From: a virus
Lineage: Duplodnaviria; Caudoviricetes
Strand: one strand, 5' to 3'
IMG/VR virus record: IMGVR_UViG_3300028738_000008
Length of the DNA stretch: 64,000 nt
Shown: positions 10,493 through 61,783 of the stretch, piece by piece
Numbering within the stretch: the stretch's first letter is position 1
Layout: every line of letters starts with the position of its first letter
Translations under genes and position numbers: made by a program
The notes under the pieces: model-generated
Databases searched by the model: none
Seen by the model: only the letters and a program-made list of their open reading frames with translations
Told to the model about the DNA's origin: nothing

Positions 10493-11836
10493 TTATCTTT
10501 TTTCAACGTAGTCAATAACCTTCTGCATTCTTCTCATGTGCTCGTTATTGATGTAAGTAGTTTTTTCGCTCACTTCATCTAATTTTTGTTTTGAAGACGG
10601 CTGTATAGAGGCTGATACTTTCGCTTCAAGACTTTCAGTGATAGGTTTCTTTCCTTTTTTCATTTCTGAAATAACGGATTTGTACTTATTCTGTGATTCG
10701 GTGATATCATTAATGTTTTTGAATTCATTAATAACTTTTAATTTTTCTTGTTGAGTCAATGCTAATTCTTCATTTATCAAGATATTGTTAACATGTGCAA
10801 GGTTGGTATTAAATACAGCCATTTCTTTTAACTGAGTTCTGTATTTTCCCAAGGCAGTTTTGTATTTGTCGATAATTGCCGTAGCTTCTTCGTTCAACTT
10901 AATAGTAGCATTCAATTTCTTGGTTACTGCTTTGTTTTCGTTGATAAGTCCAGCTACTTTCTTTTTAGACTCTTGCATAAAGGCTGGAGACTGATCCTTT
11001 TCGCCTGCGCTAAGATATTCATTGTTTGGGGTATGTCTGCCAGTGTTGTTACGTCTAGCAGTATAAGACAAACCATGAGATTCATCAACTTCGGGTTCAT
11101 TTGAAAATTCTTCTTCCTGTAATGCACTGTCGATTTCGTCGTCAGATGGAAGTTCGATTTCATATACAGAATCAAGACCTTCTTCCGCACCTGCTTCTGT
11201 TGAATCGTCAAATGATGTTTCTGCACCTGCTTCTGTGTCACCTGTGACATCAGTTTCTGGTTCAGTACCTTCAAGACCCATTGCAGCTATAATGCTATCC
11301 AATTTATTTCTTAATTCGATTAATTCGTTTCCAACACTTTCGTCGTCGCCAACTTCTTCGCCTGCGGCTTTTTCACCTGCTTCTTCACCTTCTGGTTCAT
11401 TGCCTTCAATTCCGCCATCTGGAGCTTCTTCGCCTGTGTCGCTCATGTTATCAAATTCTGATAATTCCCTTTCAATGTCTTCCATTGTCAGAGACATGCC
11501 ACCAGCATTTGCGTCACCTTCTGTTTGATCAAATTCTTCTTTGATTACATCCTTTGCTGGGATGTCTTTACCTTTAACTTTTTTCTCGGTCTCTTTGGTT
11601 TTCATAACAGAATCTTTGTTTTTTTTATCGTCCGATTCTTCGGACTCTTTATTTTTGTCAACATCATCCTTGTCGGATTCTTCTGTTGATTTTTTATTTT
11701 TCTTAAATTCTTCCTTGATCAATTCGCTGATCTTAGCAGGGTATTCTTCAGCCAACAAATTTTTAGCTCTTGCCGTAGCAGCTTCTTTCAATTGGTTGTA
11801 CTCTATTAAGGCTTCTTTTAATTTATTCTTTTCCAT
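10493..11836 (-). CDS. prohead core/scaffolding protein (gp22-like)
   Basis: Acidic N-terminal half and coiled-coil C-terminal half; located between protease and capsid genes. Confidence 0.75.
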   Translation of the reverse strand: MEKNKLKEALIEYNQLKEAATARAKNLLAEEYPAKISELIKEEFKKNKKSTEESDKDDVDKNKESEESDDKKNKDSVMKTKETEKKVKGKDIPAKDVIKEEFDQTEGDANAGGMSLTMEDIERELSEFDNMSDTGEEAPDGGIEGNEPEGEEAGEKAAGEEVGDDESVGNELIELRNKLDSIIAAMGLEGTEPETDVTGDTEAGAETSFDDSTEAGAEEGLDSVYEIELPSDDEIDSALQEEEFSNEPEVDESHGLSYTARRNNTGRHTPNNEYLSAGEKDQSPAFMQESKKKVAGLINENKAVTKKLNATIKLNEEATAIIDKYKTALGKYRTQLKEMAVFNTNLAHVNNILINEELALTQQEKLKVINEFKNINDITESQNKYKSVISEMKKGKKPITESLEAKVSASIQPSSKQKLDEVSEKTTYINNEHMRRMQKVIDYVEKR

Positions 11837-50971: not shown

Positions 50972-51043
50972 ATGAGAACAATTTTTAACATAGTACCGCA
51001 GCATCAACCACAACCCTTGAAGTATCTTCAATCGAATGGCTGA
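50972..51043 (+). CDS. leader peptide 1, MRTIFNIVPQHQPQPLKYLQSNG
   Basis: 23-aa ORF between promoter and terminator; core codons CCG CAG CAT CAA CCA CAA CCC. Confidence 0.8.
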   Translation: MRTIFNIVPQHQPQPLKYLQSNG

Positions 51044-51071
51044 ACTATGTAAAAAATAAACATACATAATG

Positions 51072-51108
51072 ATCCCCTTTAATTGAAAGATTAAAGGGGA
51101 TTTTTTTT
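51072..51108 (+). terminator. attenuator terminator 1
   Basis: ATCCCCTTTAAT-TGAAAG-ATTAAAGGGGAT followed by a T run, ending 3 nt before the first tRNA. Confidence 0.88.
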
Positions 51109-51590: not shown

Positions 51591-52355
51591 ATGTATTACG
51601 TTGTACAGAAGAATGTTTTTAGGGAAGAAAATTACGATAATTTGATTATCGCTTTGAATCGGTTGGAGTTGCCATATGAGATCGTTGATGTATTACCTTT
51701 TGTAGACACCTTCGAATTCAAGACAACCAGAAAGGATGTTTTTCCTTTCGGAGCTGTTAAAATGTCAAGAATTGCCAAAGAATTGGACTGGAATCCAGGC
51801 TCTCAATTATGTGACAATCATGACTATAACGTATATAGTAAGTATTATAAAGAAAACTTGCTGAACTACGATTCAAGGATTATCAGGTTTGGCGATGATT
51901 TCTTTCAAACAGAAAGGTTCTTTGCACGTCCGACATTGGATACTAAAGTGTTTACTGGTCATGTGTTTGACATGGGCGAATGGATTAAGTTCAGAGACGA
52001 ATCCATTGTCAATGGACATAGCACTTTACTGAACACAGATACTGAAATTCAGATTTCTTCTGTAAAAAATATACAGAAAGAAATAAGGTTTTGGATTGTG
52101 AAAGGCGAAATCGCCACAGCAAGTCAGTATTCTCTGGGTGGAAGATTCTGTGTGAATGAAAACGTCGATCAGTCGGCATATGACTTCGTAAACAGAATGA
52201 TTAAGATATTCGAATTGAATGATACCTTTATTATAGATGCATGCCTTGTTAAAGGCGAATACAAAATAGTTGAATGCGGTTGCACAAACAGTGCTGGCTT
52301 CTATCGAGCAGATATGCAAAAGCTGCTTATGAAATTGGAAGACGCTTTCAATTAA
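51591..52355 (+). CDS. ATP-grasp protein (DUF4343/R2K-like) embedded in tRNA operon 1
   Basis: FFARP..DTKVFTG, IQKEIRFWIVKGEI, FIIDAC...YKIVECGC.NSAGFY; start corrected to ATG 51591 because the listed start lies inside tRNA-His. Confidence 0.8.
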   Translation: MYYVVQKNVFREENYDNLIIALNRLELPYEIVDVLPFVDTFEFKTTRKDVFPFGAVKMSRIAKELDWNPGSQLCDNHDYNVYSKYYKENLLNYDSRIIRFGDDFFQTERFFARPTLDTKVFTGHVFDMGEWIKFRDESIVNGHSTLLNTDTEIQISSVKNIQKEIRFWIVKGEIATASQYSLGGRFCVNENVDQSAYDFVNRMIKIFELNDTFIIDACLVKGEYKIVECGCTNSAGFYRADMQKLLMKLEDAFN

Positions 52356-54477: not shown

Positions 54478-54516
54478 TATTTATATTTGCAGGTATCAAA
54501 AATTGTATTACCTTTG
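54478..54516 (+). promoter_or_regulatory. composite promoter of tRNA operon 2
   Basis: TATTTATA, TTTG, N19, TACCTTTG. Confidence 0.8.
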
Positions 54517-54546
54517 TACCGAAATTAATATTTAAGAATAGAAACA

Positions 54547-54639
54547 ATGAGAAATTTACTTAACATAGAATTATTGGCAGTGGATCAGGTCAACCTCCTA
54601 TTATGGGCGGATGAAGATAGATTATGCCATGCTGGTTAA
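54547..54639 (+). CDS. leader peptide 2, MRNLLNIELLAVDQVNLLLWADEDRLCHAG
   Basis: 30-aa ORF between promoter and terminator; 19 of 30 residues are L/D/E/V/A/W. Confidence 0.78.
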   Translation: MRNLLNIELLAVDQVNLLLWADEDRLCHAG

Positions 54640-54664
54640 GTAGAGTTTAAGAATATTTTAAACT

Positions 54665-54695
54665 AAACCCCCAGCATACGTGTTGGGGGTTTTTT
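54665..54695 (+). terminator. attenuator terminator 2 with competing antiterminator
   Basis: AAACCCCCAGCA-TACG-TGTTGGGGGTTTTTT; ATGCTGG (54629-35) can pair with CCAGCAT (54671-77). Confidence 0.88.
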
Positions 54696-54739
54696 GTTTA
54701 TGTACGTTATTTGACATGTTGGGTTATAAAATTAAAATT

Positions 54740-54811
54740 GGTCTATTGGGGTATGGGTTATCCTTTGTGGTTGTCAGCCATGAGAAGCGAGTTCAAGTCT
54801 CGCATAGACCG
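54740..54811 (+). tRNA. tRNA-Asp(GTC)
   Basis: TT GTC AG loop; G73. Confidence 0.8.
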
Positions 54812-54870
54812 CACTAAGCATTATGAGAGTACTTGCCACTAGGGTAAGCCAACCTAAATTGCTTTTTCAT

Positions 54871-54944
54871 ACCTTCGTAGGGGAGTGGTCGTCCCTGTCG
54901 CACTGTCTATGCGAAGATCGCCAGTTCAAATCTGGTCGGGGGTG
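54871..54944 (+). tRNA. tRNA-Asp(GTC)
   Basis: TCGCA-CT GTC TA-TGCGA; G73. Confidence 0.82.
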
Positions 54945-54973
54945 CTGGTTTCATAATAAATGAAACATTTAAT

Positions 54974-55046
54974 GCTCGGTTCATCTAACTGGTTAGGATA
55001 GGTGACCTTCAATCATCCAATACGGATTCAAGTTCCGTACCGAGTA
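54974..55046 (+). tRNA. tRNA-Glu(TTC)
   Basis: CC TTC AA loop (C33). Confidence 0.78.
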
Positions 55047-55056
55047 CTTTTTTCAT

Positions 55057-55131
55057 GCTCCTATCGTCTAGTTGGTTCAAGGCGTCTGTTTTACAAGCAG
55101 AATATCGGTGGTTCGAATCCATCTGGGAGCA
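55057..55131 (+). tRNA. tRNA-Val(TAC)
   Basis: TCTGT-TT TAC AA-GCAGA. Confidence 0.85.
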
Positions 55132-55140
55132 CAAATTTAT

Positions 55141-55213
55141 GGCTTAGTAGACCAACGGCAGAGTCATCAGACTTAAACCCTGTACAGTGTGGGTTCGAAT
55201 CCCACCTAAGCTA
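55141..55213 (+). tRNA. tRNA-Leu(TAA), short variable arm
   Basis: CT TAA AC loop with weak anticodon stem; canonical T arm. Confidence 0.72.
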
Positions 55214-55220
55214 CAAATAT

Positions 55221-55294
55221 GGCTCAGTATCCCAATTGGCAGAGGAAGTTGACTCAAAAACAACTAGTTGTCGGTTCGAATCCGACTTGAGCTA
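55221..55294 (+). tRNA. tRNA-Leu(CAA), short variable arm
   Basis: GTTGA-CT CAA AA-ACAAC. Confidence 0.8.
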
Positions 55295-55305
55295 CAATAT
55301 AATAT

Positions 55306-55378
55306 GGATCGGTAGACCAACGGCAGAGTCACTTGTTTTAGAAGCAAGCCAGTGAGGGTTCGAATCCCTCTCGATCTA
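55306..55378 (+). tRNA. tRNA-Leu(TAG), short variable arm
   Basis: CTTGT-TT TAG AA-GCAAG. Confidence 0.82.
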
Positions 55379-55388
55379 CAATATTTAT

Positions 55389-55475
55389 GGGGAATTGATG
55401 GAATGGTAGACATCCTAGTTTTAGAAACTAGTGCGAAATAATAGTAGCGTGTGAGTTCGAGTCTCACATTCCTCA
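55389..55475 (+). tRNA. tRNA-Leu(TAG), long variable arm
   Basis: CTAGT-TT TAG AA-ACTAG. Confidence 0.87.
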
Positions 55476-55595
55476 CGCAATATTCAATGGGAACGCATGT
55501 GTTAACATCGTGGCGTCCGTCACGTAGATGGGAAACAGAACAGGGAGCATGCCTAGAATCTCGTTTAGGGTTGGAGATTTACTTTAATAATTATG

Positions 55596-55668
55596 GGGCA
55601 GTAGCTCAATTGGCTAGAGCACTACACTTGCAATGTAGAGGTTGTGGAATCGTCCTCCATCTGCTCCA
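55596..55668 (+). tRNA. tRNA-Ala(TGC)
   Basis: CTACA-CT TGC AA-TGTAG; G3-U70; atypical T-loop. Confidence 0.85.
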
Positions 55669-55696
55669 CTGATAATCAGGAGATTATCTATTTTAC

Positions 55697-55786
55697 ACGT
55701 CTATGTCCGAGTGGCTTAAGGAACTGGTCTCCAAAACCAGCGTGGGTGACACCATATCCAAGGTTCGAATCCTTGTTGGCGTGCCA
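55697..55786 (+). tRNA. tRNA with Trp anticodon (CCA) and long variable arm
   Basis: CTGGT-CT CCA AA-ACCAG; G73; encoded CCA; 90 nt. Confidence 0.8.
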
Positions 55787-55853
55787 GAGAATAAATGTTG
55801 CGAATCTTGTAACATTTATTCTTTTTTTTCGTATAATTTGTAAAAATAACAAT

Positions 55854-61051: not shown

Positions 61052-61110
61052 CGTGAGAGACCGTTATAATTTCAAAGTCCACTTGGTATCGGAAGCGTAG
61101 AAATTAATTT

Positions 61111-61194: not shown

Positions 61195-61256
61195 CTTGGT
61201 AGACTGTTATAATTTCATAGAACCCATTAAGTGTGGTATGCGTGGAAATTAAAAAT

Positions 61257-61337
61257 GGCGGCAGACGGGTAATGGAAATCCTAGGGGCATGCAATCCTGA
61301 GTCACAGACTATGTTGGTTCGAATCCAACCGTCGCCA
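61257..61337 (+). tRNA. atypical tRNA-like gene of unresolved identity
   Basis: Acceptor GGCGGCA/CGTCGCC and T arm GTTGG TTCGAAT CCAAC; anticodon region GGGGCATGCAATCCT is non-canonical. Confidence 0.5.
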
Positions 61338-61697: not shown

Positions 61698-61769
61698 GGC
61701 TCGTTAGTTCAGCGGTTAGGGCGTCTGACTCTAAATCAGAAGGCATGGTTTCGAATACCATACGAGCCG
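61698..61769 (+). tRNA. amber suppressor tRNA (anticodon CTA)
   Basis: TCTGA-CT CTA AA-TCAGA; perfect acceptor stem GGCTCGT/ACGAGCC; G73. Confidence 0.88.
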
Positions 61770-61783
61770 CAAATAATTATAAT

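Follow-up and report, generated by a model that had tools for sequence, protein, structure and literature searches.

Enterobacterial amino acid attenuators include trpL, hisL, pheL, and leuL, and some of them are multivalent, such as the ilvGMEDA leader (Leu, Val, and Ile) and the thr leader (Thr and Ile). In the pheST attenuator of Escherichia coli, the pheM leader peptide regulates the aminoacyl-tRNA synthetase of a single amino acid, and boxA is the NusB/NusE site of antitermination in rRNA operons. Phage tRNA genes have for decades been discussed as codon compensation, and to our knowledge hardly anything has been described of their regulation. More recently, a role in replacing host tRNAs that defense systems destroy has come under discussion for phage tRNAs (PMC10264068). 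Among the systems closest to the one described here, pheL is a leader-peptide attenuator (PMC3082878), and T-box riboswitches are terminator/antiterminator switches that respond to the state of a specific tRNA and precede translation-related genes (PMC9177973).

We compared these systems with operon 2, a tRNA operon in a 64,000-nucleotide stretch of DNA (the window) from a giant tailed phage of peat soil. With a probability of roughly 0.78, we conclude that operon 2 is controlled by a ribosome-mediated (leader-peptide) attenuator that responds to decoding speed and adjusts tRNA transcription by feedback; most likely, the tRNAs are made only while ribosomes read their cognate codons slowly. As in enterobacterial attenuators, a short, presumably translated ORF with regulatory codons is combined with an intrinsic terminator and an antiterminator whose 5′ strand a ribosome would occlude, and as in the ilvGMEDA and thr leaders, one leader would sense several amino acids. 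The new point is that the regulated genes are tRNAs and not genes for amino acid biosynthesis, transport, or synthetases, so that, unlike in the enterobacterial systems, the sensed molecule would be the product. The phage unit differs further in covering six amino acids, in its Bacteroidota context without a Shine-Dalgarno sequence, and in matching no Rfam leader family. With pheST it shares leader-peptide attenuation directed at part of the translation apparatus and not at metabolism, but an array of tRNA genes takes the place of one synthetase. A T-box binds tRNA directly through RNA-RNA contacts and without a ribosome, whereas the phage unit would be read by way of an ORF, and no Rfam T-box match was obtained at the operon 2 leader. 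No description of leader-peptide control of tRNA genes was found in open-access papers and bioRxiv.

On the plus strand, a Bacteroidota-type promoter was followed by a 30-codon ORF, a strong intrinsic terminator, and ten tRNA genes (54740 to 55786); all features that a first-pass annotation had placed at 54547 to 55786 were found in the sequence. The genes are tRNA-Asp(GTC) (54740 to 54812 and 54871 to 54945), tRNA-Glu(TTC) (54974 to 55046), tRNA-Val(TAC) (55057 to 55132), tRNA-Leu(TAA) (55141 to 55214), tRNA-Leu(CAA) (55221 to 55295), tRNA-Leu(TAG) (55306 to 55379 and 55389 to 55476), tRNA-Ala(TGC) (55595 to 55669), and tRNA-Trp(CCA) (55697 to 55786). They serve six amino acids (Asp twice, Leu four times), and a conserved 115-nucleotide non-tRNA spacer (55477 to 55594) lies between the second Leu(TAG) gene and the Ala gene. 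Nine genes were called by ARAGORN; the tenth (54974 to 55046) came from Rfam and was called Glu(TTC) by ARAGORN at a lower threshold. Up to the operon-end intrinsic terminator (55786 to 55832; 18-bp stem, T8), the regulated genes were tRNA genes alone, without biosynthesis, transport, or aminoacyl-tRNA synthetase genes. Rfam covariance models at gathering score gave tRNA matches only and no leader or riboswitch family, and at an E value of ≤1 on 54529 to 54699 they gave sub-threshold noise only (T-box and Leu/Phe, His, Thr, and Trp leaders included). The stretch was present in 24 peat DNA runs, with no RNA run among the runs listed, and a "distant" blastn search of GenBank phages with the operon returned tRNA-level matches only and no cultured close relative.

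The promoter (54478 to 54520) consists of an upstream box, TATTTATATTTGCA (54478 to 54491), and a Bacteroidota-type −7 box within TTACCTTTGTACC (54508 to 54520), where the match reads TAccTTTG (54509 to 54516). The Bacteroides promoter consensus is TTTG / TAnnTTTG, and Bacteroidota housekeeping promoters are known to be of this type rather than of the TTGACA / TATAAT type. In the window, the composite occurred without mismatch only before the three tRNA operons, with a spacing of 30 to 31 nucleotides, and relatives carried a like-type box (TAtcTTTG) at the same promoter position. Used as a search pattern in IMG/VR and JGI metagenomes, the composite retrieved one related genome only (G001, Ga0209511_1000019); a further match, L059, was rejected as an unrelated bacterial promoter, and a 17-mer around the −7 box gave mostly chance matches.

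The leader ORF (MRNLLNIELLAVDQVNLLLWADEDRLCHAG; 54547 to 54639, with ATG at 54547 and the stop codon TAA at 54637 to 54639) begins 26 nucleotides past the end of the −7-box match (54508 to 54520), and its 5′ region is A-rich and unpaired. Within codons 8 to 24 (ELLAVDQVNLLLWADED; 54568 to 54618), the putative sensing block, 15 of 17 residues belong to the set {L,D,E,V,A,W} that the downstream tRNAs serve, as do 19 of the 29 residues after Met1 in the whole leader. At a background fraction of 0.325 for the six residues (long ORFs of the window), the probability of a total of at least 19 of 29 was 2.9e-4, and that of any 17-residue stretch with at least 15 in the set was 3.5e-5. The claimed match to the tRNA set was confirmed and exceeds chance (P of about 3e-5 to 3e-4). 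The leader was unique at 15/17 among 503 ATG-started ORFs of 20 to 45 codons in the window, and its other two frames hold 8 and 3 in-set residues, with stops. Its Leu codons are TTA (four times), TTG, CTA, CTC, and CTT; TTA, TTG, and CTA match the anticodons TAA, CAA, and TAG, a correspondence that had been proposed before and for which every element was located.

The first-pass annotation had warned that these residues are common and that composition is weaker evidence here than in operons 1 and 3. This concern was answered by cross-matching in three genomes (the window, G001, and G002), in which each leader showed enrichment for the amino acids of its own operon and of no other, and the true leader-tRNA pairing ranked first among the possible assignments (6 in the window, 24 in G001, and 24 in G002). 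G002 divides the amino acids among its operons in another way, and the match is kept: an LLQQLQLLQL leader precedes Gln/Leu tRNAs, a leader beginning MRTFFGNINVEFNSNFIEDW precedes Glu/Asp/Val/Phe/Ile/Asn/Trp tRNAs, IITIKRRTIKRMMRKMII precedes Met/Lys/Arg tRNAs, and a T/S/Y/H/A/G/C/P/V leader precedes tRNAs for those amino acids.

In related giant phages (IMG/VR), 15 distinct op2-type leaders were found, all before Asp, Glu, Val, Leu, and further tRNAs. The frame was open in all 15, all length differences were multiples of three, and each leader held 19 to 25 in-set residues. Residues changed in the variable core columns, yet 80 to 100% stayed inside the cognate set, and synonymous-only changes were seen at D, I, L, E, A, and G. 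Because the homologues were found by a pattern inside the conserved core, conservation of VLLWA is partly a matter of ascertainment. The G001 leader tolerates a 13-codon insertion of noncognate residues, and G004 and G005 combine an intact op2-type leader with a downstream set of just three Asp tRNAs plus one odd tRNA.

The intrinsic terminator (54667 to 54699) has a stem of 10 to 12 bp (54667 to 54676 paired with 54681 to 54690), a TACG loop, and a T6-G-T3 tract (T-run at 54690 to 54695, then G and TTT); the hairpin alone was at −15.5 to −16.7 kcal/mol, depending on stem bounds, and its stem carries a compensatory C-G to T-A change in G001. As the annotation had claimed, ATGCTGG (54629 to 54635; codons His28-Ala29-Gly30, adjoining the stop codon) is complementary to CCAGCAT in the terminator 5′ arm (54671 to 54677) over seven Watson-Crick pairs, which enclose an AU-rich 9-bp hairpin after the stop codon (54644 to 54664). 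This hairpin is kept in G001, with a G·U to U-A change, whereas relatives have another one, GTAATA..TATTAC, in its position; it is possibly an RNA polymerase pause or stacking element. Taken alone, the 7-bp antiterminator of the window was not significant (16% of shuffles were as good; z = −1.0), and what supports it is covariation in relatives.

In each homologue, the ORF tail paired with the terminator arm of that same unit, at −10.5 to −19.8 kcal/mol. The window helix was at the weak end of the family with −10.8 kcal/mol, compared with −11.3 to −19.8 kcal/mol in the main-clade and L136 leaders and −10.5 kcal/mol in the close relative L001. Cognate tail-arm pairing was stronger than noncognate pairing, and none of 20,000 permutations was as good. 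Three antiterminator helices occurred among the homologues (ATGCTGG/CCAGCAT, AGTCGGG/CCCGACT, and GGTCGAGA/TCTCGACC), with compensatory changes. Since a cross-clade MAFFT alignment put the terminators out of register, pairs were counted on the main clade only (alignment A3), and clades were compared via duplex energies instead. On A3, 87.7% of cells were paired in the antiterminator versus 18 to 45% when it was slid, both sides had changed in 5 of 10 pairs, and the covariation score exceeded that of 499 of 500 shuffles; for the terminator, 95.7% of cells were paired, with double changes in 4 of 9 pairs. A complement to the terminator lay in the last ~33 nucleotides of the ORF in 12 of 13 units from five genomes; in operon 1 of the window, no obvious antiterminator was seen. 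The multi-amino-acid leader-peptide attenuator proposed earlier is supported by the computational tests, with frame, composition, and terminator-complementary tail kept in 15 homologues.

Folding was modeled with an assumed ribosome footprint of −15 to +12 relative to the first base of the A site. With the A site at Asp24 (54616 to 54618), the last cognate codon of the block, 54629 to 54635 is left free. Before the terminator 3′ arm emerges, the predicted antiterminator probability was 0.87 to 0.97 with the A site anywhere in codons 9 to 24 and 0 once the A site had reached Cys27 or the stop codon; this modeled on/off pattern agrees with the earlier proposal that a ribosome at the stop codon would block the antiterminator and a stalled one would permit it. 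The antiterminator was also predicted at this stage without a ribosome (0.86). At equilibrium, the terminator was preferred in every ribosome state (P = 0.94 to 0.95), and the switch must therefore be kinetic. The full-length minimum-energy fold joins 54556 to 54564 with 54635 to 54643, a candidate for the 1:2 pairing that would sequester the antiterminator strand of an untranslated leader; it is not conserved in the main clade.

After the terminator lies a boxA-like box, GTTATTTGACATGTTGGGT (54707 to 54725), a variant of GTTCTTTGACATGTTGGAA, the spacer box of Bacteroidota rRNA operons. Relatives conserve the box in op2 and op4, and their copy exactly matches a 19-mer that GTDB genomes carry at 89 places, almost all of them in Bacteroidota and most of them in the spacer that separates tRNA-Ala from 23S rRNA; against this 19-mer, the window copy has differences at 3 of 19 positions. 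We take the box to resemble boxA (GTTCTTTGACA versus GCTCTTTAACA in E. coli), and by its position and this resemblance it is a putative boxA-type antitermination site; a search of the literature for the boxA sequence found nothing. Compared with boxA of rRNA operons, the phage copy, to judge by its match to the Bacteroidota rRNA-spacer box, would be the same element placed in a tRNA operon downstream of a regulated terminator. Two other roles were rejected: that of a general phage promoter, because TTTGACATGTTGG occurs only once in the window, and that of another terminator 3′ arm, to which its pairing with the arm in the window and G001 had pointed, because the box persists in relatives whose terminator differs. 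That the promoter is of host type and the box that of a host rRNA spacer argues for use of the host RNA polymerase.

From these features we infer that the leader is translated, that the two helices compete kinetically, and in which direction and by what physiological signal the unit is regulated. Host RNA polymerase would initiate at the Bacteroidota-type promoter, and a ribosome would translate the 30-codon leader. Fast decoding of the Asp, Glu, Val, Leu, Ala, and Trp codons would bring the ribosome to the last codons and the stop codon, so that it would cover ATGCTGG; the terminator hairpin would then form, and the transcript would end at ~54695 to 54699. Shortage of any cognate aminoacyl-tRNA would stall the ribosome within codons 8 to 24 and leave ATGCTGG free to pair with CCAGCAT as the terminator 5′ arm emerges; the polymerase would then run on beyond the box of host rRNA type and transcribe the ten tRNA genes. 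Since the products are the tRNAs tested by the leader, the circuit would be negative feedback on tRNA supply.

An unlikely alternative accepts the attenuator and differs as to what it reads: general translation capacity or amino acid starvation rather than the supply of particular tRNAs, so that any slowing of ribosomes or uncoupling of transcription from translation would open all tRNA operons and the matched composition would be a by-product of common descent. The mechanism cannot tell uncharged tRNA, missing tRNA, and slow ribosomes apart, the no-ribosome state also favors the antiterminator cotranscriptionally, and an N-terminal motif common to all leaders, M-[KR]-x-x-x-[ND]-I, suggests leader duplication from one ancestor. 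However, leaders follow different amino acid partitions in different phages, and op2-family residues drift yet remain within the cognate set, both of which are hard to explain without selection for specific codon classes; moreover, extra tRNA would be no help under amino acid starvation.

We consider it very improbable that the ORF is a gene for a small hydrophobic membrane peptide, followed by a terminator that belongs to it, with independently expressed tRNAs and a coincidental likeness to an attenuator. The core (ILVAVLMVDVLLWAA / ELLAVDQVNLLLWA) is hydrophobic and helix-like, L, V, A, and W are typical of small membrane helices, L, V, and A are common residues in any case, and the peptide is kept in 15 relatives. 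However, the same promoter-ORF-terminator-tRNA layout occurs with nonhydrophobic leaders (PQHQPQP, KSYKKYKMKK, ISSSVTISGITTRSS, and LLQQLQLLQL), each of which fits its tRNAs, and the acidic run DED/EEDD is cognate as well. Covariation of the ORF tail with the terminator arm is not required of a free-standing peptide gene, and no Bacteroidota-type promoter was found between the terminator and the tRNAs. Equally improbable is a terminator that acts as a constitutive insulator, with the tRNAs transcribed from an internal promoter, TTGACA-16-TAAAAT (54711 to 54738; 11/12), a near-consensus sigma-70-type match directly upstream of the first tRNA gene and overlapping the conserved box. Conservation does not extend to its second hexamer (in L062 and L063, ~10 nucleotides separate the box from the start of the first tRNA gene), its conserved part is the Bacteroidota rRNA-spacer box and not a promoter, and such matches were as numerous in the region as expected from shuffles. 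The TTGACA / TATAAT type is also not known to be that of Bacteroidota housekeeping promoters, and we rejected this promoter as not conserved.

If leader-peptide attenuation holds, the operon 2 unit would be one of four such units that jointly cover the 20 amino acids. We tentatively suggest, at less than even odds, that the attenuators, four in this lineage, work together as a modular network of tRNA supply in which each unit uses the ribosome to gauge decoding speed for its own share of the 20 amino acids, turns on just the matching tRNA genes, and passes the polymerase on to an antitermination box of rRNA type borrowed from the host. The network might detect and repair selective loss of host tRNAs, as both counterdefense sensor and homeostat, and the loss detected could stem from host shut-off or from anticodon nucleases. 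Because leader codon content sets specificity, the leader would be a compact, programmable sensor of tRNA availability, for which the family-wide covariation offers ready natural variants for experiments. If the main reading is true, the classical trp/his mechanism would here, for the first time, control the very molecules it senses, with product feedback acting directly on decoding capacity; the reading would also predict which tRNAs become limiting during infection and would place ribosome-coupled attenuation at work in Bacteroidota phages.

Operon 2 forms a single transcription unit on the plus strand (54478-55832). It is headed by a composite promoter (TATTTATATTTGCA, 16 nt and TTACCTTTGTACC, the latter including a Bacteroidota-type TAnnTTTG box), which within the window is found without mismatches only upstream of the three tRNA clusters. 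About 26 nt downstream lies the leader ORF (54547-54639; 30 codons, ATG start, MRNLLNIELLAVDQVNLLLWADEDRLCHAG), followed by a 9-bp AU-rich hairpin (54644-54664), a strong intrinsic terminator (stem 54665/54667-54690/54692, 10 to 12 bp; T-run from 54690), a conserved box (54707-54725), ten tRNA genes (Asp x2, Glu, Val, Leu(TAA), Leu(CAA), Leu(TAG) x2, Ala, and Trp) and a second terminator closing the unit (55786-55832), all on the same strand. The tRNA with the Trp anticodon CCA (55697-55786) is 90 nt long, with a long variable arm, a Ser-like D-loop, and one acceptor-stem mismatch, and its charging identity is uncertain; homologues measure 82 nt in the more distant phage G003 and a normal 74 nt in the 425-kb phage G002, and in the close relative G001 the position is taken by an unusual tRNA of 75 nt whose anticodon stem is poor. 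A 115-nt spacer between the Leu(TAG) and Ala tRNAs (55477-55594), which is kept in G001, is not a tRNA and matched no Rfam family; it may represent a small RNA or a processing element.

The leader was assessed for residues of the six amino acids carried by the ten tRNAs (L, D, E, V, A, and W). The first-pass annotation, whose coordinates and counts all proved correct on recheck, had placed 15 of 17 core residues in this set, and we reproduced that figure (P = 3.5e-5 by simulation); over the leader, 19 of 29 residues were in the set (P = 2.9e-4), against a background of 32.5% in the window's long ORFs. Among the 503 small ORFs of the window, only the operon-2 leader attained 15/17, and the bias was absent from the other reading frames of the leader DNA. 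Operons 1 and 3 have the same promoter-ORF-terminator-tRNA layout: the operon 1 leader (..VPQHQPQP..) precedes three Pro, two His, and two Gln tRNAs, and that of operon 3 (..KYGKTTKSYKKYKMKK..) precedes three Lys and two Tyr tRNAs. In a 3-by-3 matrix of leaders and sets, each leader was enriched for the set of its own operon only (diagonal P values of 6e-5, 3e-4, and 2e-5; off-diagonal P ≥ 0.6). The true assignment of leaders to operons ranked first of 6 possible assignments in the window and first of 24 in both G001 and G002. A small membrane peptide could likewise have the L, V, A, and W content of the operon-2 leader, although hydrophobicity is not a feature of the other leaders built this way.

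Several further elements accompany operons 1 and 3. An ORF of the R2K clade of ATP-grasp proteins (51591-52355) lies within operon 1, with His tRNAs on one side and Gln tRNAs on the other, and is conserved in all relatives at 46 to 95% identity, always adjoining tRNAs. In operon 3, two similar spacers (61053-61110 and 61196-61254; ..GTTATAATTTCA..) stand one behind each Tyr tRNA, followed by a degenerate tRNA-like sequence (61255-61337; 85 nt, anticodon TGC, and poor acceptor stem by ARAGORN at low threshold). A suppressor-type tRNA with anticodon CTA (61698-61770; Pyl according to ARAGORN) comes after operon 3, behind its own terminator, and is kept in G001.

Logan contigs from at least 24 peat metagenome runs contain DNA of the window, with no RNA run among those listed, and no cultured relative was found by blastn of the operon against GenBank phages. 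G001 (IMG/VR UViG_3300025140_000001; 328-kb contig) carries all four units; in the fourth, a leader of 48 codons (I/S/T/G/R/C/N/M/F) stands ahead of tRNAs for Cys, Ile, Phe, Gly, Met, Asn, Ser, Thr, and Arg. The operon-2 leader of G001 has a noncognate 13-codon insertion upstream of a retained core, and its operon-2 terminator shows a compensatory C-G to T-A change. In G002, amino acids are partitioned differently, and four leaders match that partition: F/N/I/V/E/D/W before Glu, Asp, Val, Phe, Ile, Asn, and Trp tRNAs; I/K/R/M/T before Met, Lys, and Arg tRNAs; T/S/Y/H/A/G/C/P/V before tRNAs for those amino acids; and LLQQLQLLQL before Gln and Leu tRNAs. The more distant phages G003 and G004, found via the ATP-grasp ORF embedded in operon 1, have Pro/His/Gln and Asp/Glu/Val/Leu/Ala/Trp operons as in the window, with diverged leaders. 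Two of these findings count against an attenuator. G001 tolerates the 13 noncognate codons, and in G004 (L063, 9450-9979), as in G005, which is nearly identical, an operon-2-type leader that is intact (L/V/A/W/E/D) precedes just three Asp tRNAs plus a fourth tRNA whose anticodon was called with 4 bases. About 6 kb separate this short array from the next tRNAs, which could reflect recent loss or rearrangement. An operon-2 unit (box, then Asp and Asp) is also carried by L228 (JBAZIW010000001.1; 362,763 bp), which is labelled a Candidatus Paceibacterota MAG and appears to be a giant phage genome placed among CPR bacteria; the same may hold for L179 and L207.

Scanning IMG/VR with a 15-mer from the core yielded 15 distinct operon-2-type leaders, all with Asp/Glu/Val/Leu.. 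tRNAs behind them; conservation of VLLWA is partly forced by this search pattern. One frame was open throughout in all 15, lengths differed by whole codons, and codons for some conserved Asp, Ile, Leu, Glu, Ala, and Gly residues varied only synonymously. Each leader held 19 to 25 in-set residues. Because variable core columns contained three to six different residues yet remained 80 to 100% in set, the alignment points to selection on codon class and not on one particular peptide. Between leader stop and terminator, the main clade carries AACCTCCTTTCTT (in L062 at ~10637-10650, and at the equivalent site of 12 further relatives), which is absent in the window and identical to the 3'-terminal anti-Shine-Dalgarno tail of Bacteroidota 16S rRNA (the 16S of L218 ends in ..ACACCTCCTTTCT).

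The putative antiterminator, in which the end of the leader ORF (ATGCTGG, 54629-54635) pairs with the terminator 5' arm (CCAGCAT, 54671-54677), is a perfect complement, as had been proposed. A 7-bp match within ~120 nt is not rare by itself (equalled in 16% of shuffles). In all 15 leaders, however, the final codons can form a duplex with their own terminator's 5' arm (−10.5 to −19.8 kcal/mol), through three unrelated helices: ATGCTGG/CCAGCAT in the window clade, AGTCGGG/CCCGACT in the main clade, and GGTCGAGA/TCTCGACC in L136; outer pairs vary as well. Cognate duplexes averaged −14.2 kcal/mol versus −10.7 kcal/mol for noncognate ones (window clade, −10.6 versus −3.1 and −5.9 kcal/mol), an advantage not equalled in 20,000 permutations. 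On the 13-sequence main-clade alignment, 87.7% of antiterminator cells were paired (18 to 45% when slid), 5 of 10 pairs had changed on both sides, and the covariation score exceeded 499 of 500 shuffles; for the terminator, 95.7% of cells were paired, with double changes in 4 of 9 pairs. Of 13 units from five genomes and all operon types, 12 have such a complement in the final ~33 nt of the ORF. Operon 1 of the window (50972-51108) and of G001 showed no clear antiterminator complement despite the PQHQPQP leader and a strong terminator; its counterparts in G003 and G004 do have one, perfect over 8 bp (GAATGGGG with CCCCATTC). The window antiterminator is the weakest in the family apart from that of its close relative L001. 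This weakness and the gap in operon 1 of the window also count against an attenuator.

Ribosome occupancy was modeled by masking −15 to +12 around the first A-site base in RNA as it stands before the terminator 3' arm emerges. The predicted antiterminator probability was 0.87 to 0.97 with the A site at Leu9, Leu17, Trp20, Asp22, or Asp24 and 0 at Cys27 or the stop, in agreement with the earlier proposal that a ribosome at the stop would block the antiterminator and a stalled one would allow it. The cognate block ends at codon 24, the last position where a stalled ribosome leaves ATGCTGG free, and of the six codons that remain, four are noncognate (R, C, H, and G). With the 3' arm present, the terminator was favored in all ribosome states (0.94 to 0.95), so that the choice would have to be made kinetically, as it is in the trp attenuator. 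The antiterminator was also predicted cotranscriptionally without a ribosome (0.86), so the untranslated default is uncertain. The 1:2-type pairing of the full-length fold was not kept in the main clade.

Downstream of the attenuator terminator and ahead of the first tRNA, relatives carry GTTCTTTGACATGTTGGAA (L062, L063, L117, L121, and L154; L052, ~1845-1865), which the window copy matches at all but 3 of 19 positions. The box resembles boxA of E. coli. The exact 19-mer occurs at 89 places in the GTDB genome set (~4 estimated by chance), nearly all in Bacteroidota and mostly between the tRNA-Ala and 23S rRNA genes of rRNA operons. The box also supports a Bacteroidota host and use of the host RNA polymerase. 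The phage seems to borrow a host rRNA antitermination signal for its tRNA arrays, and we infer that the box would render polymerases past the attenuator termination resistant along the long untranslated array.

Taken from sequence comparison and folding, the evidence supports interpretation of operon 2 as a leader-peptide attenuator. Since the operon's only products are tRNAs reading the leader codons, negative feedback on tRNA supply is the simplest and most likely reading: when a cognate tRNA is scarce, the ribosome would stall, read-through would follow, and more operon-2 tRNAs would be made, and when it is ample, transcription would terminate. Amino acid starvation would trip the same sensor, and extra tRNA would then be of no help. 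Possibly, the switch serves to replace host tRNAs lost to shut-off or tRNA-targeting defenses (for context, see PMC10264068). No curated Rfam leader or T-box model matched operon 2, and no description of leader-peptide attenuation of tRNA genes was found in the open-access literature and bioRxiv. The switch would work like the multivalent ilv and thr attenuators and, as in pheM-pheST, target the translation apparatus, whereas the genes regulated here are those of tRNAs; it would thus be a known mechanism in a new variant, with tRNA genes as its targets.
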